Shown here: positions 1-22,837 of the stretch, piece after piece | Layout: each line of letters opens with the position of its first letter | Position numbering within the stretch: the first letter of the stretch is position 1 | Sequence record: MZ234021.1 | Reading direction: 5' to 3' (one strand) | Source: Escherichia phage vB_EcoP-101118UKE1 | Length of the DNA stretch: 40,233 nucleotides | Made by a program: the position numbers and the translations under genes | The notes under the pieces: generated by a model | The model's input: only the letters and a program-made list of their open reading frames with translations | Told to the model about the DNA's origin: nothing | Database searches by the model: none

Positions 1-3000
1 ATGCAGGAACGAGAGGACCGCTCTACGTGGTTCGGTTTCGGTGCGGCTACAGAAGCTGAAGTGAAGAACTCTATGGTCGGCGTGGCTATCAGAGCTGGTC
101 AGACTGAGGACTCACTGGATGTCATTGGCGATGTGTTCAACCCAACCCGATGGAATAACCATAAGTGGTCTCGTGAGGAGCTGGACCAGATTCGTAACTC
201 TGGGGTTCTGCCTCAGTATTACGGAGTCATCACTGGTGGTTCCCCTCAGAACCTGACTGAGCTGATTAACTTGGCGCTTGAGAACCAGAAGTTGGACCAA
301 GAGAAGGCCAAGGCCGGGACTGGTGCTCAACTGGCGGCTGGTGTGATTGGTGCTGGCGTGGACCCTCTGACCTACGTTCCTATTGCTGGGCAGGTAGGTA
401 AAGGTGGGAAGCTAGCCAACAAGATGTTCACTGTGGCTGCTCAGTCTGGTGCTCTGGCTGGGGCATCCGAGATTGCTCGAACCTCAGTTGCTGGTGGGGA
501 CGCTCATGTGGCTGAGGCAATTATGGGCGGTGCTCTCTTCGGTGGGGGAATGACAGCTATCGGGGACGCTATCGGCAAGGCCTTAGGCAAGTCAACCAAC
601 GAGTTCGCCGGACCAGCCACACGTCTGGAAGCCCGTGAGACTGCACGTAATGTTGATGGTCAGGACCTGTCGCGTATGCCAATCCGTGAAGGAGAGGAGA
701 CCTTTAGTCATCAAGGCGTTAAGTTCGCTGACGTTCCGAATGAGCCGGGAAGTGTACGATTAGAAGACGGTTCAATCCTGATTGGTGAGAACCCTCTGAA
801 CCCTAAGACACGTCAAGTCTTTGACGAAGTGATTGAGCCTGAACGTGCCGCTGCTGGTGTGAACCTTGGTGGGCTGACTGAGATTGGCCTGAAGCTGCTT
901 CGGTCCGAGAACCCTGAGATTCGTGGAGTAGCTGCTGACTTAGTACGTTCACCGACTGGTATGCAGTCTGGGGCCTCAGGTAAAATAGGGACAACTGCGT
1001 CAGACGTATTCGAGAGACTTCGTGCTGTGGACCATCGGTTCTACAATGACATCGACGATGCGGTTACTGAGGCACTAAAGGACCCGTACTTCCAGACAGC
1101 ATTCTGGCGAGACTCTGGCGCATTCCGTCAAGACATCTATCAGCGCGTGTCTATGGCTATCGAAGATGGTAGCGGAAACCTGAAGGCTGAATTGACTCCG
1201 GGAGAACTGAAAGTCTATGACCTGCTGAAGAACCAGTTTGACGCCAAGCGTGAGATGATGGAGAACCCGGCGATGTTTGGTCGCCCAGACGCTCAGTCTA
1301 TCTTTCCGGGTAGCCGCTTCAAGGGAACATACGTCCCGCATGTGTATAGCAACCAGATGAAGGAGCTGTACATCAAGGAGCTTGGGAGTCCAGAGGCACT
1401 ACAGGAGGCCATCAAGAAGTCATGGTTGACCAGCTATGCGTCTCGACCTGAAGTCAAGAAACGCGTGGACGAGGCACTTTTAGAGGCTGACCCTACGTTG
1501 ACTCCAGAAGGACTTGCGGCTGCGGTCGATAAGTACGCCAACGATAAGGCTTATGGTATCTCTCACACCGAGCAGTTCGAGCGTTCATCCGTAATGGAGG
1601 AGAACATCAACGGGCTGGTTGGTCTGGAGAACAACAGCTTCCTTGAGGCTCGTAACCTGTTCGATAGCGATATGTCAATCGTTCTTCCTAACGGTCAGAC
1701 CTTCAGTGTCAACAACCTGCGTGAGTGGGACATGGACAAGATTGTCCCGGCCTACAACCGTCGAGTTAATGGTGATATTGCTATCATGGCTGGTACAGGC
1801 AAGACCACGAAGGAAATGAAGGACTTAGTTGAGACCATGATGAACAAGGCTGGCGATGACGGAAAGTTGAAAGGTGAAGTATCTACCTTACGTGACACCC
1901 TGAAGATTCTCACTGGTCGTGCTCGACGTGATGGTGCTGATGATGCGGCCTTCGCTACCGTGATGCGCACGATGACAGACCTATCGTTCTTCGCTAAGAA
2001 TGCCTACATGGGTGTTCAGAACTTAACGGAGATTGGTGGTATGCTGGCTCGTGGTAACGTTCGTGCAATGCTTCATGGAGTCCCAATTTTCCGTGACCTA
2101 GCCTTCCGTAACAAGAAGGTTGGGGCCTCAGAGATTAAGGACCTGCACAATGTTATCTTCGGTAAGGAACTGGATGACTCAATCCGTCCGTCTAAACAGG
2201 ATGTCATTGACCGTCTGCGATCTTACAGTGACCTCGGTCGTGGTACAGCTACAGCTCTGGGGACTGCCAAGTATTACACTGGCGAACTTGCAGTACGCTC
2301 TCCGTTCACTAAAGTCCTCAACGGTACGACCAACTACCTGTTAGATGCTGGACGTCAAGGCTTCCTGTCTGACATCGTGGAGCATAGCCTGACTGGTAGT
2401 AAGCGTAAGTTCGATGACCGCTGGCTGAAGACCGCTGGTATATCTGACGAGCAGTGGAGTGGAATTAAGTCCCTAATCCGTGAGTCAGTGACTCGTGGGC
2501 CAGACGGGAAGTACACCATCAAGGATAAGAAGGCGTTCAGTCAGGACCCAAGGGCTATGGACCTGTGGCGTATGGGTGACACCATCGCTGACGAGACGTT
2601 ACTCCGGCCTCATAAGCTGTCAAACATGGACGCCAAGGCTTATGGGCCTCTCGCTAAGACTGTCCTTCAGTTTAAGAACTTCGTCATCAAGTCTATCAAT
2701 GGGAGAACCATGCGAACCTTCTATAACGCCACGAAGAACAACAGAGCGATTGACGCTGCACTGTCGACCGTGATGTCTATGGGTCTGGCTGGTATCTACT
2801 ACATGGCTCAGGCGCATGTCAAGGCTTATGCTATGCAGGATGGTCGAGACCGTGACTACCTTAAGCAAGCTCTGGACCCAACGATGATTGGCTATGCGGC
2901 CCTGTCCCGTAGTTCACATCTTGGTGGCCTACTTGGGGTAGCTAACATTCTGGGAGGCATCGCTGGATATGAGGACACTAAGATGCTCCGTTCGTCTATC

Positions 3001-3303
3001 CTACCTCGTTCTCCTACAGATAAGCCTGAGCGTGCCATCGCGTATGGTGCAGCTACAAGTGACCCTGTGATGAATGTTGTTGGTAACTTCTTGGAGCAGG
3101 TTCCAGCTTTCGGATATGCTGCTAACGTTGGCGCTTCGGCTTACAACTTGGCTGGCTACCTCAAGGCTGATACTCGTGTCAACGAGCGTGACTACATGAC
3201 CGGGATGTATAATACGTTCCGTGAACTGGTTCCGAACGACCCCATTACCCAGAAGCTGCTGCTTGGAACGTTTGAGGAGCAAGGCATCCACATCAAGGAC
3301 TAA
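1..3303 (+). CDS. Internal virion (ejection) protein gp16, C-terminal 1100 aa; gene is split by the window boundary and continues from 39649..40233
   Basis: Long ORF colinear with T7 gp16 from about residue 220 onward (e.g. RSTWFGFG, TGGSP, VRSPTGMQSGASGK, GTYVPHVY, MDLWRM); stop TAA 3301-3303. Confidence 0.9.
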   Translation: MQEREDRSTWFGFGAATEAEVKNSMVGVAIRAGQTEDSLDVIGDVFNPTRWNNHKWSREELDQIRNSGVLPQYYGVITGGSPQNLTELINLALENQKLDQEKAKAGTGAQLAAGVIGAGVDPLTYVPIAGQVGKGGKLANKMFTVAAQSGALAGASEIARTSVAGGDAHVAEAIMGGALFGGGMTAIGDAIGKALGKSTNEFAGPATRLEARETARNVDGQDLSRMPIREGEETFSHQGVKFADVPNEPGSVRLEDGSILIGENPLNPKTRQVFDEVIEPERAAAGVNLGGLTEIGLKLLRSENPEIRGVAADLVRSPTGMQSGASGKIGTTASDVFERLRAVDHRFYNDIDDAVTEALKDPYFQTAFWRDSGAFRQDIYQRVSMAIEDGSGNLKAELTPGELKVYDLLKNQFDAKREMMENPAMFGRPDAQSIFPGSRFKGTYVPHVYSNQMKELYIKELGSPEALQEAIKKSWLTSYASRPEVKKRVDEALLEADPTLTPEGLAAAVDKYANDKAYGISHTEQFERSSVMEENINGLVGLENNSFLEARNLFDSDMSIVLPNGQTFSVNNLREWDMDKIVPAYNRRVNGDIAIMAGTGKTTKEMKDLVETMMNKAGDDGKLKGEVSTLRDTLKILTGRARRDGADDAAFATVMRTMTDLSFFAKNAYMGVQNLTEIGGMLARGNVRAMLHGVPIFRDLAFRNKKVGASEIKDLHNVIFGKELDDSIRPSKQDVIDRLRSYSDLGRGTATALGTAKYYTGELAVRSPFTKVLNGTTNYLLDAGRQGFLSDIVEHSLTGSKRKFDDRWLKTAGISDEQWSGIKSLIRESVTRGPDGKYTIKDKKAFSQDPRAMDLWRMGDTIADETLLRPHKLSNMDAKAYGPLAKTVLQFKNFVIKSINGRTMRTFYNATKNNRAIDAALSTVMSMGLAGIYYMAQAHVKAYAMQDGRDRDYLKQALDPTMIGYAALSRSSHLGGLLGVANILGGIAGYEDTKMLRSSILPRSPTDKPERAIAYGAATSDPVMNVVGNFLEQVPAFGYAANVGASAYNLAGYLKADTRVNERDYMTGMYNTFRELVPNDPITQKLLLGTFEEQGIHIKD

Positions 3304-3367: not shown

Positions 3368-5548
3368 ATGTCCACGATTACACAATTCCCTTCAGGAAAC
3401 ACTCAGTACAGGATTGAGTTCGACTACCTAGCCAGAACGTTTGTTGTTGTTACGCTGGTGAATAGCTCTAACCCTACCCTGAACCGTGTACTGGAAGTTG
3501 GTCGAGATTACCGATTCCTTAATCCAACGATGATTGAGATGTTGGCTGACCAATCAGGTTTCGACATCGTTCGTATTCACCGTCAGACTGGAACTGACTT
3601 AGTGGTAGACTTCAGGAATGGCTCAGTGTTGACAGCTAGTGACCTGACCAATTCAGAGCTTCAGGCTATCCATATTGCAGAAGAAGGTCGAGACCAAACG
3701 GTTGACTTAGCGAAGGAATATGCCGATGCTGCTGGCAGCTCTGCTGGCAACGCTAAGGATAGCGAGGACGAAGCACGCCGAATCACTGCGAGTATCAAGG
3801 CAGCTGGTAAAATTGGCTATATTACCCGTCGCTCCTTCGAGAAAGGCTTCAACGTTACAACATGGAACGAGGTCCTGCTATGGGAAGAGGATGGTGATTA
3901 TTACCGCTGGGATGGTACGCTTCCAAAGAACGTTCCCGCTGGTTCAACTCCTGAATCATCTGGTGGTATTGGGCTGAGTGCGTGGGTTAGTGTTGGTGAT
4001 GCGTCACTTAGAGCAAACCTGTCTGATAGTGATGGCGCTAAATACATAGGAAGTGGAGAAAGGACATTACTTGAGCACAACAATGATGTTTTGCACTCAA
4101 AAGACTTTCCAACACTGCAGGCAGCTATAGATGCATCTTTGCAAAAAAATGATCTACTGGTGTCTCCTGGCAATTATACTGAAAAAGTTACTATTGGAAA
4201 CGCGCAGTTAAAAGGTGTTGGCGGGGCCACGGTACTAAAAACTCCGGCAGACTTTACAAACACTGTTCAGGTTAATTTAGCTACACCTCATTGGCAATTC
4301 CGCCATAGTGGTGGTTTTGCTATAGATGGTTCCGGGACAACCGGGGCCGTAGGTATTAGTTTTGACCCGTCAGACCAATATTCCGGACGTCATAATTTTA
4401 GTGATGTATACATCCACAACATCAACAAGGCCATTCAGAAGCCTTCCGGGAACATCGGCAATACTTGGAGAAATATTGGGATATCTACGTGTGATTGGGG
4501 GTATTACGCGATTAGTGGCTCAGAGATGCATTGCGGGGCCGATACCCTCTACAATATCCACTTCGATGGCATCTCCACCTATGCAGTCTATCTAAACGGC
4601 ACTGTCGATAATGGCGGGGGGGGCGCATGGTGGCTTAAAGACTCCATTATTGAGGCTTCCGGAGGTGGCGGGATATACTTAAAAAGTAAATCGGGCGACT
4701 GTCCTACATCTCCATGCGGGGTATCCAATATATGGATGGAAGCGATCGCAACATCACCGGCTGTTCAGGTAGACGGCGTGGCGCAAAAACCGCGAGTTCT
4801 CAAGTTGGTAGACACAGCGATATTCTTTGCTGAGTATTCTTATCTCAACAACATCGAGCTATCCAACTCCAACTTAGTAACTTATGGTTGCCGTTTTGAC
4901 AACGCTGATGGCAATCAGGATATTGTCGTGGATGCACAAAGCACCATTGTAGCCCATGACGTGTATTTAAACGGCAGTTCTGGAAAGGACGTTATTGTGG
5001 AGTCCGTCGCATCGCAATCTGCAACGATAGCTACCACAAACTTATCTCTGAGGGGCAACTTAACAAGAGGGAGAGTATTTAATACGCCGACAGGGAATAA
5101 ATTAATGGCTATCACATTTGACTCAGGTAGCTATAATTTTTCTGGCAGCGGCACCGTTAACGGTTCGACTGTATCTGACGGACTTCACGCCGCTACATGT
5201 ACCGAATTTTCATTCCCCGGAGCCGGTTTATATGAAATGGTAGCGACAAGAACAACCATTACATCCGGTAGATGGTACGTGTGGGGAGTTAACTCACGCC
5301 TACAATCTGGCTCGGCGGATATTAGTATAACGTCAGGTATTACCATGGGTAGTGTTTACACAAAGCAGGGGGAGTGGATTAGCACTTTCGGTGTAGGAAA
5401 GGCATCTACCACTGGCACTGTAGCGCTATACGTTTCCACAGGAGGAGGTTCGGGAGCTACGGTCAGATTCAGTGACTTTTTCATCGCTGAGTTTACGACG
5501 CAAGCTCAGGCTTTATCTTTCGCCAATTCAAGGATGTCGTTATCATAA
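3368..5548 (+). CDS. Tail fiber / tailspike (gp17-like N-terminal adaptor, beta-helix-like C-terminal region)
   Basis: AAAGGAGG RBS 3356-3363; N-terminal ~150 aa resemble T7 gp17 (EFDYLARTFVVVTL, DYRF, LVDFRNGSVL, IAEEGRD); remainder unrelated to T7 fiber, Gly/Asn/Ser/Thr-rich with repetitive strand-like segments. Confidence 0.85.
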   Translation: MSTITQFPSGNTQYRIEFDYLARTFVVVTLVNSSNPTLNRVLEVGRDYRFLNPTMIEMLADQSGFDIVRIHRQTGTDLVVDFRNGSVLTASDLTNSELQAIHIAEEGRDQTVDLAKEYADAAGSSAGNAKDSEDEARRITASIKAAGKIGYITRRSFEKGFNVTTWNEVLLWEEDGDYYRWDGTLPKNVPAGSTPESSGGIGLSAWVSVGDASLRANLSDSDGAKYIGSGERTLLEHNNDVLHSKDFPTLQAAIDASLQKNDLLVSPGNYTEKVTIGNAQLKGVGGATVLKTPADFTNTVQVNLATPHWQFRHSGGFAIDGSGTTGAVGISFDPSDQYSGRHNFSDVYIHNINKAIQKPSGNIGNTWRNIGISTCDWGYYAISGSEMHCGADTLYNIHFDGISTYAVYLNGTVDNGGGGAWWLKDSIIEASGGGGIYLKSKSGDCPTSPCGVSNIWMEAIATSPAVQVDGVAQKPRVLKLVDTAIFFAEYSYLNNIELSNSNLVTYGCRFDNADGNQDIVVDAQSTIVAHDVYLNGSSGKDVIVESVASQSATIATTNLSLRGNLTRGRVFNTPTGNKLMAITFDSGSYNFSGSGTVNGSTVSDGLHAATCTEFSFPGAGLYEMVATRTTITSGRWYVWGVNSRLQSGSADISITSGITMGSVYTKQGEWISTFGVGKASTTGTVALYVSTGGGSGATVRFSDFFIAEFTTQAQALSFANSRMSLS

Positions 5549-5887: not shown

Positions 5888-6147
5888 CGCAGATGGACTT
5901 AGAGAAGTTCCTCTTGATGCTTGATACTGAACGTGCTCGACTCATGCTGCAAGACTTGCGGGATGACACTAAGCGTTCACCTCAGCTCTACAACGCCATT
6001 GAGAAGCTGCTTGCTCGTCACAACTTTGTGTTAAGCAAGGTGTCTGTGGACGAGAAGGCGCTGGCTGATATGGAGGCCCTGAACGCAGAGTACGATAAGG
6101 TTCTTTCAGCGACTGAGGATAATGACACCGGGTATGGTGTTCAATAA
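5884..6147 (+). CDS. Terminase small subunit (gp18-like)
   Basis: 87 aa; ATGA start/stop overlap with holin; size, position and RSPQLYNAI motif as in T7 gp18. Confidence 0.8.
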   Translation: MTQMDLEKFLLMLDTERARLMLQDLRDDTKRSPQLYNAIEKLLARHNFVLSKVSVDEKALADMEALNAEYDKVLSATEDNDTGYGVQ

Positions 6148-6158
6148 GTGTTAGACTC

Positions 6159-6185
6159 AAGGTCATTACTATATGTAGTGGCCTT
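6159..6185 (+). promoter_or_regulatory. Putative RNase III processing hairpin (R18.5-like)
   Basis: AAGGTCAT 6159-6166 pairs with GTGGCCTT 6178-6185 in RNA (G-U wobble allowed), upstream of Rz gene. Confidence 0.45.
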
Positions 6186-6248
6186 TATGGTTAACACACA
6201 CTACGGGCGGCGACGCTACGTGGATTCTGAGAAATGAGGAGGGCAACT

Positions 6249-10143: not shown

Positions 10144-10272
10144 GTACCACATCAACACGAAACAACGGTGACGACCAACACTGAAACGGTCTACCTGAAG
10201 TCCTCTGACTGAAGGGAATGCTCTTTAACAATCTGGATAAACTCTTAATGTGCGCCGATAGCGACTAACTAC

Positions 10273-10302
10273 AGGGCCTTTGAGTCTACATCTGAAGGCC
10301 CT
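10273..10302 (+). promoter_or_regulatory. Putative RNase III processing hairpin (R0.3-like) before first early gene
   Basis: AGGGCCTT 10273-10280 / AAGGCCCT 10295-10302 perfect stem; followed by the GGCCCTGACTGATAGTCACTAAC box. Confidence 0.5.
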
Positions 10303-10335
10303 GACTGATAGTCACTAACTTAAAGGATGGACACT

Positions 10336-10581
10336 ATGAAACACTTAAGCACAATCACTAATCGCAATGAAGTATTCGTGAACACTAAAGGTTATGCGTG
10401 GATTCAGCTTAAAGAGATGACAGGAGCGCGTCACCGTGTGGTAGTTCGCAAGGTATCAAGCAAGCAGTTCAGCAACTACAGCGTCGATACTGTGCGTATA
10501 GACAACGAGACATACCTGATAGACTCGCAGATAACCGTGAGTCCTACAGTGGGCGTCTCAGCTCCTTATTTCGCTAACTGA
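10336..10581 (+). CDS. Hypothetical early protein (first gene after the early promoters)
   Basis: ORF 10327..10581; second ATG 10336 has better spacing from AAAGGATGG; preceded by an RNase III-type hairpin; no recognisable homolog. Confidence 0.5.
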   Translation: MKHLSTITNRNEVFVNTKGYAWIQLKEMTGARHRVVVRKVSSKQFSNYSVDTVRIDNETYLIDSQITVSPTVGVSAPYFAN

Positions 10582-10594
10582 GAGTGATTAACTA

Positions 10595-10620
10595 CAGGTC
10601 GTTAGACTGATAGCGGCCTG
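10595..10620 (+). promoter_or_regulatory. Putative RNase III processing hairpin before Ocr gene
   Basis: CAGGTC / GGCCTG stem; followed by GGCCTGACTGATAGTCACTAAC box 10615-10636. Confidence 0.45.
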
Positions 10621-10664
10621 ACTGATAGTCACTAACACATAATTAACTTTGAGAGGATATAACT

Positions 10665-11168
10665 ATGGAACGTAATGCTAACGCATACTATGAGCTGCTG
10701 GCTGCAACCGTTGAGGCATTTATCGAGCGTATTCAGTGCGACCACCTGACTAAAGATGACGACTACAGCGCTGCGCTGCATGAGGTCGTAGACGGTCAGG
10801 TTCCACACTATTACCACGAGATTTTCATGGTGATGGCTGCTGATGGTATAGACAACGAGTTCGAAGACTCTGGGATGATACCTGAAACCAAGGACGTAAC
10901 GCGTATCCTACAAGCTCGCATCTATGAGGCACTTTATAACGACGTGTCTAATAGCTTGGATGTAGTCTGGTTTGAGGATGAAGAGGCAGACGAAGAGGAT
11001 GAATATTGGGTAGTTGACGCTAAAACAGGCGCAATAATTGTGCAAGCTGTAGCTCTTGAGGTCGCTACTGCATGTGCCAAGGTTAACTATGCGGCAGGTC
11101 GCCACCTTCAGGTGGAAGACATCAATGATAACGTAGTGTTTGACCCTGCTGCTGAGGACTGCGAGTGA
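10665..11168 (+). CDS. Ocr-like anti-restriction DNA-mimic protein (gp0.3) with ~50-aa C-terminal extension
   Basis: GAGAGGA RBS; VPHYYHEIFMVMAADGIDNEFEDSGMIPETKDVTRILQARIYE closely matches T7 Ocr; acidic tract then extra 50 aa absent from 117-aa T7 Ocr. Confidence 0.85.
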   Translation: MERNANAYYELLAATVEAFIERIQCDHLTKDDDYSAALHEVVDGQVPHYYHEIFMVMAADGIDNEFEDSGMIPETKDVTRILQARIYEALYNDVSNSLDVVWFEDEEADEEDEYWVVDAKTGAIIVQAVALEVATACAKVNYAAGRHLQVEDINDNVVFDPAAEDCE

Positions 11169-11324: not shown

Positions 11325-11348
11325 CAGGTCATCAATGCTGGTGGCCTG
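11325..11348 (+). promoter_or_regulatory. Putative RNase III processing hairpin before 11381 gene
   Basis: CAGGTCAT 11325-11332 / GTGGCCTG 11341-11348; followed by GGCCTGACTGATAGTCATTAAC box 11343-11364. Confidence 0.45.
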
Positions 11349-11380
11349 ACTGATAGTCATTAACAACTGAGAGGGAAGAT

Positions 11381-15698: not shown

Positions 15699-15721
15699 CC
15701 TAAACTATCACTATAGGCTTA
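15699..15721 (+). promoter_or_regulatory. Phage RNAP promoter (phi1.1-type), +1 at 15716
   Basis: CCTAAACTATCACTATA/GGCTTA. Confidence 0.8.
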
Positions 15722-15726
15722 GACTC

Positions 15727-15753
15727 AAGGTCATGACTCAAAGTCGTGGCCTT
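15727..15753 (+). promoter_or_regulatory. Putative RNase III processing hairpin (R1.1-like) just after phi1.1-type promoter
   Basis: AAGGTCAT 15727-15734 / GTGGCCTT 15746-15753. Confidence 0.5.
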
Positions 15754-15794
15754 CATGATTAACCCTAAATAAACACTACTGGAGATTTAACCGT

Positions 15795-18285: not shown

Positions 18286-18444
18286 ATGACTGAGGTTGAG
18301 AAGAAATACATCGTGGAGCTTGAGGGTCGCGTTCAGTCCTTCGAGGTTCCGTTGTACGCAAAGTCTCTTGAAGAGGCTACCCTGAAGTCCCAAGAGTATG
18401 AGGACGCTGGGTTTGTGGTCGGACGGATTCGCCCTGAGACCTAA
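18286..18444 (+). CDS. gp2-like inhibitor of host RNA polymerase (52 aa)
   Basis: Not in ORF track; AAGGAG RBS 18272-18277; [14 protein letters not shown]...[11 protein letters not shown] matches T7 gp2. Confidence 0.8.
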
Positions 18445-18462
18445 ACTATCACTGTAGGACAG
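18440..18462 (+). promoter_or_regulatory. Phage RNAP promoter variant (phi2.5-type), +1 at 18457
   Basis: CCTAAACTATCACTGTA/GGACAG (A to G at -3). Confidence 0.65.
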
Positions 18463-18501: not shown

Positions 18502-19194
18502 ATGGCTAAAGAGCAACTGAAGACTTTCACCACTCCGGTAGCTGGTATCGTTGAGCCTTACGCATGGCTGAACAAAGCAGACACCAAGTTTAATGAACGT
18601 GGTGAGCATAAGGTTAACCTGACGTTCGACCTGAGCGACCCGAAGGTCCGTAAGATGATTGATGTCTTACAGAAGATTCACGACGATGCGTATGCGAAAG
18701 CACTCGCAGACCACGAGAAGAACCCACCTCAGGTTCAGCGTGGTAAGAAGCCTATTGAACCACGTGAAGGCGACATGCCGTGGATTGAGAATGGTGACGG
18801 TACTGTTACCCTTAAGTTTAAATGCTTTGCGTCTTACCTGAAAGACGGCAAGTCCGAGCCTATCTTATTACGGTTCTACGACACCGATGCTAAACTCATC
18901 CGTGACGTCCCGAATATTAGCGCTGGCTCCAAACTGAAGGTCAAGTTTAAAGTCCTGCCGTTCAAGTGGAACGCTGCGACCGGTGCAAGCGTTAAGCTCC
19001 AGCTTGAGTCCTGCCTTCTTGTAGAACTGAAGGAGTGGAAAGGTGCTGGTGGTGATGGTGGCTGGGGTGATGATGAAGACCTTGGTACTGGCTACAAAGC
19101 GCCAACCGATGGTGACTTCGGGTCTGATGCCTTCGGTGACGATGGTTCCGAAGGTGGTGACGACTCCAGCTCTGGTGGCGATTACGACTTCTAA
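18502..19194 (+). CDS. Single-stranded DNA-binding protein (gp2.5)
   Basis: 230 aa, Gly/Asp-rich acidic tail ending in F (GGDYDF) as in T7 gp2.5. Confidence 0.93.
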   Translation: MAKEQLKTFTTPVAGIVEPYAWLNKADTKFNERGEHKVNLTFDLSDPKVRKMIDVLQKIHDDAYAKALADHEKNPPQVQRGKKPIEPREGDMPWIENGDGTVTLKFKCFASYLKDGKSEPILLRFYDTDAKLIRDVPNISAGSKLKVKFKVLPFKWNAATGASVKLQLESCLLVELKEWKGAGGDGGWGDDEDLGTGYKAPTDGDFGSDAFGDDGSEGGDDSSSGGDYDF

Positions 19195-19646
19195 TGGCCC
19201 AATGGTCTGCAAAACGGGGGCACTCTGTGGGTGCCTACCGCTCTGGACTTGAAGCCAAGAACCAGCAGTGGCTGGAACAGAACGGCGTCAAAGCGGAGTA
19301 CGAAAGCCATTATATCAACTATGTGATTCCGGCTTCCGACCACAAGTACACACCAGATTTTATCCTTCCTAACGGTATCATCGTGGAGACCAAAGGTATC
19401 TTCGATAGTGATGACCGTAAGAAGCACCTTCTGGTACGAGAACAGCACCCAGAGTTAGACATCCGGTTCGTGTTCTCAAGTTCACGCTCCAAGTTATACA
19501 AAGGGTCTCCAACCACGTATGGCGCATGGTGCGAAAAGAACGGCTATAAGTATGCCGATAAATTCATCCCGGTTGAGTGGCTTCGAGAGGCGACTGTACG
19601 TCTGCCTTCAGGTATACTCATCCCCAAGAAGAAAGGAGTTAAGTGA
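19194..19646 (+). CDS. Endonuclease I, Holliday-junction resolvase (gp3)
   Basis: YTPDFILPNGIIVETKG...DDRKKHLLVREQHPELDIRFVF nearly identical to T7 gp3. Confidence 0.93.
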   Translation: MAQWSAKRGHSVGAYRSGLEAKNQQWLEQNGVKAEYESHYINYVIPASDHKYTPDFILPNGIIVETKGIFDSDDRKKHLLVREQHPELDIRFVFSSSRSKLYKGSPTTYGAWCEKNGYKYADKFIPVEWLREATVRLPSGILIPKKKGVK

Positions 19647-20137
19647 TGAGCAAGAAGTTTAAACTGTTAGTAGATGCGCATGGCTGGCCTAGTGGGACTA
19701 TAGTTACCAAGTGTGAGAATGACCCCGTACCAGATTCAAGAATGACCCTAGTTGAGTGCCAGATTCCAGGCGCATACAAACATGGGTCTAACGGCTGCAA
19801 TACTCAGCCTGAGGGTATGTGGGGAGCATGGGTCCTTAATTGGAAACTTGAGGAAATCAAGCCGGAAGAGAAACTCACTGGTGTCCAAACCACTCAAGTC
19901 CTGCCAGCTTCGAGCGTACCGCCTGTGACTTTGAAGCGTGAAGTCCTGACCATCGACAAGATTGGTGTAGGCCAGACGTTCATCGTCCATGGAAAGCCTG
20001 AAGAAGTTTACGTGAAGATTAGCAACTCACACGTCTTCAACCATAAGCATCTCCAGATGCACACCACGGACGCACAACGCTTCACCCAGCACCTGAATCT
20101 GGTTGTCGTAGAATTGGTGGTGTACAATGGTAAGTAA
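19646..20137 (+). CDS. Hypothetical protein (163 aa), inserted between endonuclease I and lysozyme
   Basis: AAAGGAG RBS 19632-19638, TGATG overlap with gp3 stop; no T7 counterpart at this position. Confidence 0.65.
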   Translation: MSKKFKLLVDAHGWPSGTIVTKCENDPVPDSRMTLVECQIPGAYKHGSNGCNTQPEGMWGAWVLNWKLEEIKPEEKLTGVQTTQVLPASSVPPVTLKREVLTIDKIGVGQTFIVHGKPEEVYVKISNSHVFNHKHLQMHTTDAQRFTQHLNLVVVELVVYNGK

Positions 20138-20585
20138 GGTACAGTTCAATCCACGGTCCCGGACCGACGCTATCTTCGTACACTGTTCGGCTACCAAGCC
20201 AGAGATGGACATCGGGGTAGAGACCATCCGTATGTGGCACAAGCAGCAAGGCTGGCTGGACGTAGGCTACCACTTTATCATCAAGCGCGATGGTACTGTG
20301 GAAGAGGGACGCCCTGTCAATGTCGTAGGGTCACACGTTAAGGACTGGAACTCACGGTCTGTAGGCGTCTGCCTTGTAGGTGGAATTGACGCTAAGGGTC
20401 AGTTTGAAGCTAACTTCACTCCAGCCCAGATGAACTCCCTGCGCAACAAGCTGGCTGACCTGAAGGTCCTGTATCCTCAGGCAGAAATAAAAGCACACCA
20501 TGACGTAGCACCTAAGGCGTGTCCAAGTTTTGACTTGCAACGCTGGCTGTCTACCAATGAACTGGTAACTTCCGACCACGGTTAA
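20127..20585 (+). CDS. N-acetylmuramoyl-L-alanine amidase / T7-type lysozyme (gp3.5)
   Basis: DAIFVHCSATKP, WLDVGYHFIIKRDGTVEEGR, HDVAPKACPSFD match T7 gp3.5. Confidence 0.93.
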   Translation: MVSKVQFNPRSRTDAIFVHCSATKPEMDIGVETIRMWHKQQGWLDVGYHFIIKRDGTVEEGRPVNVVGSHVKDWNSRSVGVCLVGGIDAKGQFEANFTPAQMNSLRNKLADLKVLYPQAEIKAHHDVAPKACPSFDLQRWLSTNELVTSDHG

Positions 20586-20608: not shown

Positions 20609-20824
20609 ATGATTAAACTTATCGAATTTCTTGGTCGTCTGGTGGTGCGTGGTTATCGTCGTGCTGCGGTTATGGAACGAAAGGTAGCAGAGAAGACTGC
20701 CGATGGTGCGGCTGATGCTGCTGCTCTGGCTGACAAGCTGACCATCGCGTCACTGGAAGCTGGCATGAAGGCGCGTCAGGCTGACACCAAAGCCGACCAG
20801 TTGTCTCAGGTCTTCAAAGCCTAA
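20609..20824 (+). CDS. Hypothetical Ala-rich small protein (71 aa)
   Basis: AAAGGAGAA RBS; position of T7 gene 3.8 but not HNH-like. Confidence 0.55.
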   Translation: MIKLIEFLGRLVVRGYRRAAVMERKVAEKTADGAADAAALADKLTIASLEAGMKARQADTKADQLSQVFKA

Positions 20825-20842
20825 ACTATCACCTTAGGGATG
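20820..20842 (+). promoter_or_regulatory. Phage RNAP promoter variant upstream of gene 4, +1 at 20837
   Basis: CCTAAACTATCACCTTA/GGGATG (divergent at -4/-3). Confidence 0.55.
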
Positions 20843-22637: not shown

Positions 22638-22802
22638 ATGCTACGAAAACTTAAAGCTCGCTACCATCGGTTCATGTACAAATGGTGGAGCGATGAAGCA
22701 ACCTTCCTGTCCAACATTCTGGGAGACCAGAGGTTCGACTCTAAGGCATGGAAGAAAGCTAACCGTAAGTTCATGTACCACTTCTTACGTACAGACTTCT
22801 AG
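22638..22802 (+). CDS. Hypothetical small protein (54 aa)
   Basis: AGAGGAGAG RBS 22622-22630; not in ORF track. Confidence 0.5.
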   Translation: MLRKLKARYHRFMYKWWSDEATFLSNILGDQRFDSKAWKKANRKFMYHFLRTDF

Positions 22803-22812
22803 GTCTAGACTC

Positions 22813-22837
22813 AAGGTCATTCACATAGAGTGGCCTT
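22813..22837 (+). promoter_or_regulatory. Putative RNase III processing hairpin after gene 4 region
   Basis: AAGGTCAT 22813-22820 / GTGGCCTT 22830-22837. Confidence 0.45.

Follow-up and report, generated by a model that had tools for sequence, protein, structure and literature searches.

Between the genes for endonuclease I (gene 3) and the N-acetylmuramoyl-L-alanine amidase (gene 3.5), Escherichia phage vB_EcoP-101118UKE1 (MZ234021.1) carries a gene, gp3.2, whose product joins an almost invariant C-terminal domain to an N-terminal half that evolves fast and is exchanged, across the family, for unrelated sequences. Given this combination of a conserved C-terminal barrel with a swappable N-terminal one, both predicted, we regard gp3.2 as a candidate host-interaction factor. 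The window analysed here, i.e. the whole stretch of 40,233 nt, represents the complete genome, in circularly permuted form, of a T7-like phage of the genus Kayfunavirus, which includes K1F, LM33_P1 and CLB_P1, therapeutic and model phages used against encapsulated and O-antigen-bearing E. coli.

Gene boundaries and transcription unit

The gp3.2 coding sequence occupies positions 19646..20137 of the plus strand and specifies 163 aa followed by TAA. The original prediction had described a well-formed gene, with a ribosome-binding site, a start overlapping the gene 3 stop and a stop overlapping the lysozyme start, and all of these signals can be read in the sequence. Specifically, the ATG (19646-19648) and the gene 3 TGA (19644-19646) have one base in common, in the string TGATG, the ribosome-binding site AAAGGAG (19632..19638, plus strand) is contained in the tail of gene 3 and precedes the start by 7 nt, and the TAA (20135-20137) falls beyond the ATG of gene 3.5 at 20127, which is located inside the gp3.2 ORF and creates an overlap of 11 nt. 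In the program-made list of ORFs the frame opens at a GTG (19643); because all homologues begin with MSKK or MTQK, ATG 19646 is taken as the start.

On the plus strand, the gene is flanked by gene 3 (19194..19646), encoding the 150-aa endonuclease I, for which orthologue records match Pfam Phage_endo_I, and by gene 3.5 (20127..20585), encoding the amidase (lysozyme). Downstream of the latter, gene 3.7 (20609-20824) encodes a 71-aa Ala-rich protein (MIKLIEFLGRLVVRGYRR...ADKLTIASLEAGMKARQ...), which relatives retain under the name 'hypothetical protein'. The phage promoter (CTAAACTATCACTATAGG) recurs at ~18435 and ~20815, its two copies bracketing genes 2.5-3-3.2-3.5-3.7, and no copy lies inside gp3.2. 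The upstream copy (CCTGAGACCTAAACTATCACTGTAGGA; 18433..18459, plus strand; repeat families D1/D2) is the equivalent of phi2.5, and the next one (20815..20837, plus strand; repeat families D1 and D5) stands upstream of gene 4. By analogy with the promoter layout of T7, the former would head a transcription unit comprising 2.5-3-3.2-3.5-3.7, and gp3.2 would be expressed as a middle (class II) gene. At gp3.2 itself, sigma-70 promoter and terminator motifs do not rise above chance, Rfam gives no match, and the antisense ORFs are interrupted by stops in relatives and are not conserved.

Several further features of these genomes were recorded. In the K1F record (AM084414.1), genes 3 and 3.5 each have an annotated product of an internal start, namely gp3B and gp3.5B (2765-3004 and 3569-3922). 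In the early region, a ~30-nt element (CCTGACTGATAGTCACTAAC...) is present in three copies (10291-10320, 10608-10637 and 11336-11365), each shortly 5′ of an ATG; these may be early host-RNAP promoters or processing sites. Another repeated element of 21-45 nt (TAGACTCAAGGTCAT...GTGGCCTT.ATG.TTAAC), found at 6146-6195, 15714-15763 and 22800-22820, with one copy immediately 3′ of a phage promoter, is a candidate RNase III-type processing hairpin.

The gp3.2 family and its distribution

In nucleotide sequence, LM33_P1 and HC12, both Escherichia phages, have a gene 100% identical to gp3.2, and the counterparts in K1F and EcoDS1 share 85-88% identity with it. The protein matches PHROG 16385 over residues 1-163 (E=5e-95) and PHROG 15211, a 74-aa family, over residues 94-163 (E=4e-39), both annotated as having an unknown function, and the name gp3.2 had already been given in the K1F, EcoDS1 and Dev2 records, as a hypothetical protein only. 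Judged by sequence and synteny, the gene is a member of this already catalogued K1F gp3.2 family. It had been predicted to be unassigned and devoid of recognisable similarity, which is correct for Pfam, NCBIfam, PADLOC and PDB sequences but overlooks the annotated records and the two PHROGs. In Pfam, the window protein found no match at E<=10, and 10 relatives gave only chance-level matches at E<=1; scans of Pfam, NCBIfam and PADLOC with the protein and 10-13 relatives returned nothing or chance-level hits, and sequence and profile searches against the PDB produced nothing below E=0.2. The literature on gp3.2, the PHROG identifiers and Kayfunavirus anti-defence yielded annotation tables only, with the PHROG identifiers absent and no published function found. 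The gene itself is thus a known hypothetical, and no description of its modular architecture was found in the literature searched.

In all 24 loci compared (24/24), as well as in the annotated records checked, gp3.2 is situated directly 3′ of gene 3 and 5′ of the amidase gene. By tblastn, its C-terminal half is present in 220 phage records and its N-terminal half in 55. Since gp3 and gp3.5 at >=80% identity are found in ~219 records, the C-terminal domain is close to universal in the genus; moreover, about 100 of the 220 records appear to carry this domain alone, which points to a core activity independent of any N-terminal module. Most other T7-like genera are without the gene. As originally predicted, T7 has none at this position, its gene 3 (10257-10706) abutting gene 3.5 (10706-11161), and in T3, KP32-like Klebsiella, Yersinia and Pseudomonas gh-1-like phages the matched gp3-gp3.5 spans are too short to accommodate an intervening gene. 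The proposal that gp3.2 is lineage-specific cargo holds in part: the gene is lineage-specific and its N-terminal half behaves as inserted cargo, but the C-terminal half is near-universal in the genus and more constrained than its core neighbours.

When 1.84 billion cluster representatives were searched exhaustively with HMMER, no more than 17 clusters were recovered, each a family member or a fragment, and the long contigs bearing family members all measure ~40 kb, which is consistent with a phage-restricted family. HMMs of both gp3.2 domains, run on the window translated in six frames, detected no paralogue. Outside Kayfunavirus, a divergent branch is represented by Providencia phage PSTRCR_120 and by MN855780, where gp3.2 is still placed directly 3′ of endonuclease I and further ORFs, one in PSTRCR_120 and one or two in MN855780, precede the amidase gene. 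In both genomes (591-1408 and 4001-4990), the divergent gp3.2 is followed by an extra ORF of 112-117 aa (M[SN]FPSLG...), and MN855780 has a 79-aa ORF before the amidase as well. Because other Studiervirinae have different extra genes near gene 3, its neighbourhood may be a general insertion hot spot. T7 (NC_001604) carries gene 2.8 upstream of gene 3, and in Klebsiella phage Whistle a second 'endonuclease' lies under the gene 3-to-amidase match.

Loss of the ORF in a close relative, an observation that the original prediction had named as speaking against it, was encountered once. Escherichia phage ZG49 (KX669227.5; 1000-1520), also a Kayfunavirus, lacks gp3.2 and instead has a 90-nt spacer with a 22-codon ORF (MAEKYSVSETTISRIRNNKRWK) between gene 3 and the amidase gene, and gp3.2 is for this reason probably dispensable for plaque formation in the ZG49 lineage. 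In the same genome, the spacer and the beginning of the amidase gene, fused to the tail of gene 3, occur as a duplicated segment, which leaves a truncated second 'endonuclease I' CDS; this duplication could be either a real rearrangement or an assembly artefact.

The constant position of gp3.2 invites the view that it is a cofactor or regulator of its neighbours, with the C-terminal domain binding endonuclease I or the amidase to tune activity or timing, and translational coupling setting the stoichiometry. The amidase of T7 also inhibits the phage RNA polymerase. A partnership of this kind would agree with the genus-wide conservation of gp3.2, with its placement directly after endonuclease I, stop and start overlapping, in every locus examined, and with its overlap with the amidase start in Kayfunavirus. 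Yet homologous gp3 and gp3.5 operate in T7, T3, KP32-like, Yersinia and gh-1 phages although gp3.2 is missing there, ZG49 lacks it too, the additional ORFs in PSTRCR_120 and MN855780 stand between gp3.2 and the amidase, and the hypervariable exchangeable N-terminal modules would be left unexplained. We therefore find a role as neighbour cofactor rather doubtful.

Domain architecture, selection and module exchange

The protein consists of an N-terminal module, here termed module A (residues 1-72; 19646..19861, plus strand), a linker (residues 73-93, PEEKLTGVQTTQVLPASSVPP; 19862..19924, plus strand) with pLDDT below 50, and a C-terminal domain (residues 94-163; 19925..20134, plus strand), each of the two domains being predicted to form an SH3-like small β-barrel. 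The C-terminal domain is basic, with a pI of 9.2, compared with 6.7 for the N-terminal one. Inspected by eye, gp3.2 shows neither a signal peptide nor any hydrophobic stretch that exceeds its final strand of 11 residues (LNLVVVELVVY).

In alignments, module A retains the scaffold GWP.GT.VT.C..DP...LVE..PG..HG..G...QP.GMWGAW, in which G13 W14, T18, C23, D26, L35-V36-E37, G42, G47, G50, Q54-P55, G57-M58 and G60 are invariant, and interspersed among them are hypervariable positions (9-11, 16, 24, 28, 30-31, 43, 49, 51, 64-67 and 72). The first part of the linker varies in length and its PASSVPP part is conserved; perfect tandem duplications of short units (19862-19900) occur in it, with GVQTT doubled in the relative P0022 and EVGEQTP doubled in P0113. 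The C-terminal domain is almost invariant within Kayfunavirus. Its motif SNSHVFN-x4-QMHTT-x3-RF (S126-F146; 20021..20083, plus strand) spans a predicted β-hairpin and a short helix, and residues Y122, S126, N127, S128, H129, F131, N132, Q137, H139, T141, R145 and F146 are the same in all 34 sequences aligned (34/34), including relatives of 26-36% identity.

With the first alignment, AF2 modelled residues 1-72 confidently (pLDDT 84-95) and the C-terminal domain below 50, the latter because its alignment was nearly invariant; after divergent members had been added, the C-terminal domain reached pLDDT 89-95 (fragment residues 21-70, corresponding to protein residues ~100-150). Each domain is predicted as a small barrel of five strands, the last of which is preceded by a short turn or helix. 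As predicted, they agree with the SH3-like fold in having five strands and a 3-10 turn before the last strand and in being superposable on solved SH3-like domains. Such a fold is generic, however, and the match scores are modest, so that the predicted fold by itself assigns no function. Foldseek searches against viral models matched family members and uncharacterised small phage proteins only.

Narrower assignments were examined as well. For canonical SH3 and bacterial SH3b cell-wall-binding domains (Pfam SH3_1, SH3_3, SH3_5 and others), no HMM match exceeded the gathering threshold; the Pfam and NCBIfam FeoA profiles did not match; and gp3.2 does not show the combination expected of an HNH or ββα-Me nuclease, which is an HNH profile match together with a His general base where strand 1 ends and a metal ligand on the helix. 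Internal duplication is not supported for modules A, B (described below) and the C-terminal domain, hhalign having aligned only 15 columns of B and C (LT..D..VG..F..H) at 27% probability, and nothing between A and C or A and B.

Two further alternative roles can be considered. According to one of them, which we judge unlikely, gp3.2 would be a nucleic-acid-binding small β-barrel, like KOW, L2, EF-P or Sm, whose substrates within the DNA-metabolism module would be intermediates of replication or recombination, or else transcripts of the phage. Among SH3-like barrels (eukaryotic SH3, FeoA, EF-P domain I/KOW and ribosomal L2), gp3.2, whose structures are predictions, differs in lacking sequence membership in the Pfam SH3, FeoA and KOW families. 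According to the other, the invariant polar motif of the C-terminal domain would bind a small ligand or a metal, making gp3.2 an immune-signal 'sponge' or the bearer of a His-based metal site. The match to Tad2 comes only in 47th place, after many generic barrels, gp3.2 shares no sequence similarity with known sponges, and the N-terminal modules again find no explanation; we consider ligand or metal binding distinctly improbable.

Selection acts very differently on the two domains. In parsimony (SLAC-like) counts over 31 distinct module-A genes, dN/dS amounted to 0.51 in the N-terminal domain (residues 1-72; 9.4 substitutions per codon), 0.22 in the linker (residues 73-93; 4.1 substitutions per codon) and 0.086 in the C-terminal domain (residues 94-160; 3.0 substitutions per codon), whereas the neighbouring genes, taken from 30 of the same 31 loci, gave 0.137 (gp3; 2.5 substitutions per codon) and 0.164 (gp3.5; 4.0 substitutions per codon). 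Purifying selection on the C-terminal domain is thus stronger than on either neighbour. As its synonymous rate is normal (3.3 substitutions per synonymous site), the domain is conserved at the level of protein rather than as a nucleic-acid element.

Within the N-terminal domain, the 16 hypervariable codons, picked from a separately assembled protein alignment, show a pooled dN/dS of 1.22 (P=0.11 vs neutrality), while the other 56 codons show 0.27. The domain is therefore a constrained scaffold with ~16 freely or adaptively changing positions. Positive selection on these positions is suggested by the pooled value, with P=0.11, and in the site-wise test no single site was significant. In the AF2 model, most of them are found in the loop that follows strand 1, in the one connecting strands 2 and 3, or in the 3-10 turn (residues 65-67). 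The ligand-binding face of canonical SH3 domains is built from the RT loop, the n-Src loop and the 3-10 helix, and, judging from the topology of the model, the hypervariable loops may correspond to these ligand-binding loops.

Beyond module A, the N-terminal halves in the family comprise at least nine unrelated exchangeable modules, or none. The C-terminal domain is found joined to module A, to the unrelated module B (CKDL.VG..Y.F...GH), to A and B stacked (221-227 aa) and to at least six other unrelated sequences, and it also stands alone as a 74-75 aa protein in Cronobacter phage Dev2, Citrobacter phages SH4 and SH5, and many Salmonella and E. coli phages. In addition, three relatives (P0122, P0142 and P0146) have in-frame deletions in the N-terminal domain and an intact C-terminal domain. 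The N-terminal modules match neither Pfam nor a separate PHROG, and a search for module B elsewhere yielded only one further member, at the same locus. The MNFPSLG... module is a separate downstream gene in PSTRCR_120 and MN855780, and its N-terminal part appears fused to the C-terminal domain in P0160; as far as this 551-bp contig can be trusted, it suggests that modules can exist either as separate genes or as fused domains.

In pairwise comparisons, the flanks remain 93-100% identical while the architecture of gp3.2 differs. A contig of 40065 bp from Logan (SRR30884456; hereafter L059) carries two tandem gp3.2-type genes at 2449-2803. The first, of 98 aa, consists of module B and the linker, and continues at the shared GTGACTGTACG into a repeat of the gene 3 tail, complete with ribosome-binding site and TGATG; the second, of 155 aa, is a complete gp3.2 with a different N-terminal module (module D). 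The recombination junction is the linker, and from its sequence the contig looks like an intermediate of module exchange, an arrangement that would make the conserved gene 3 tail and the conserved linker/C-terminal domain the anchors of exchange. On the same grounds, ZG49 may be taken as a second intermediate, as long as its rearrangement is not an assembly artefact. Variable content between conserved flanks is a property of the N-terminal module and not of the near-universal C-terminal domain; in other words, gp3.2 resembles an accessory-region element in its N-terminal half and a core gene of the genus in its C-terminal half.

These data also bear on whether gp3.2 could be filler devoid of function, an ORF annotated in error or an insertion that is purely selfish, as might be imagined from its absence from T7 and ZG49 and from its lack of a known function. 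The selection data contradict this, the dN/dS of the C-terminal domain across 31 relatives lying below that of the core neighbours, and so do the retention of the gene in ~220 phage records, the confident folds of both domains and the sparing of the C-terminal domain by in-frame deletions, rendering filler extremely improbable. Together with 255 protein-cluster homologues, the low dN/dS, the number of phage records and the fold predictions confirm that gp3.2 is a real gene and not a chance ORF.

A possible adaptor and its relation to known systems

We tentatively propose that gp3.2 is an adaptor of two modules, a constant one that docks and, attached to it, a variable one that binds, used for host interaction or counter-defence. 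Several lines of evidence led us to this reading: unrelated N-terminal modules are attached to one constant C-terminal domain; dN/dS contrasts sharply between the two; most hypervariable codons fall in two loops and a 3-10 turn; both domains are predicted to be SH3-like; and the C-terminal domain stays intact in deletions. It is further favoured by the lack of any catalytic-family signature in profile scans of gp3.2, by the putative intermediates L059 and ZG49, by the position in an operon between promoters, and by the likeness to accessory regions discussed below.

In such an adaptor, gp3.2 would be a soluble, middle-expressed protein built as beads on a string. The constant C-terminal barrel would provide the core function of the family, probably docking through its SNSH.FN/QMHTT/RF surface on one conserved partner, be it a phage or a host macromolecule, and a flexible linker would tether it to the exchangeable N-terminal small β-barrel. 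The loops of the N-terminal module, evolving at or above the neutral rate, would bind a target that changes fast and is specific to the lineage, a host factor or a defence component being the most plausible choice, and the module would bring this target to whatever the C-terminal domain binds, or mask it there. Recombination would replace the modules, with the conserved gene 3 tail on one side and the conserved linker/C-terminal domain on the other. The data show that the gene is real, how its domains are arranged and predicted to fold, how selection acts on them, that modules are exchanged and where the family occurs; partner binding by either domain, the identity of the partners and the role in counter-defence are what we infer from this pattern. 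The chief difficulty for the proposal is the apparent occurrence of the C-terminal domain by itself in about 100 of the 220 records, since the core activity would then need no N-terminal module.

A bolder extension, which we consider fairly unlikely, is that gp3.2 is the founding member of a 'plug-and-play' family of intracellular binders, combining a constant hub-docking barrel with a pool of hypervariable SH3-like modules that are recombined at two conserved junctions, some of them also existing as stand-alone neighbour genes. If so, K1F-like phages could direct a single effector mechanism at a changing set of targets in host defence or takeover. More generally, the N-terminal half of gp3.2 is among the most variable segments of an otherwise conserved operon, while its C-terminal domain is more constrained than the adjacent genes, a contrast that makes gp3.2 a well-defined candidate determinant of host range or counter-defence, as well as a compact natural example of cassette exchange at the level of domains. 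Should it have no role in either, gp3.2 would stay an ordinary conserved hypothetical protein.

Among known systems, gp3.2 of K1F and EcoDS1 comes closest, belonging to the same family and occupying the same position between genes 3 and 3.5, with no difference in kind, and the 74-aa gp3.2 of Dev2 and SH4/SH5 equals the C-terminal domain of the window protein alone. Scattered through the class II region of T7 are small host-takeover proteins, namely gp2, gp4.5, gp5.5, gp5.7 and gp5.9. Like them, gp3.2 is small, soluble and non-enzymatic-looking, and is encoded and, on the T7 layout, expressed among genes of DNA metabolism; unlike them, it is a modular protein of two domains, absent from T7 and with no homology detected to other ORFs in the window. 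A constant anchor combined with a variable binding domain is known from phage receptor-binding proteins, e.g. tailspikes (PMC11990801), which gp3.2 resembles in having a constant domain joined at a conserved junction to modules swapped by recombination. In contrast to these proteins, however, it is a small non-structural product of a middle gene, and the order of its parts is the opposite, the N-terminus being variable and the C-terminus constant.

A described signature of phage counter-defence accessory regions is the presence of variable genes flanked by conserved ones (bioRxiv 10.1101/2023.04.06.535777); gp3.2 was not found in the supplementary files of that study. By analogy, gp3.2 may be likened to such regions in its variable content between near-identical flanks, its fast divergence, its recombination and its dispensability in at least one relative, but here the variation takes place at the level of domains within one gene that retains a constrained C-terminal domain. 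Measured against these systems, gp3.2 is not a new kind of system; what has been analysed is a known hypothetical gene, which emerges as a concrete, testable candidate.
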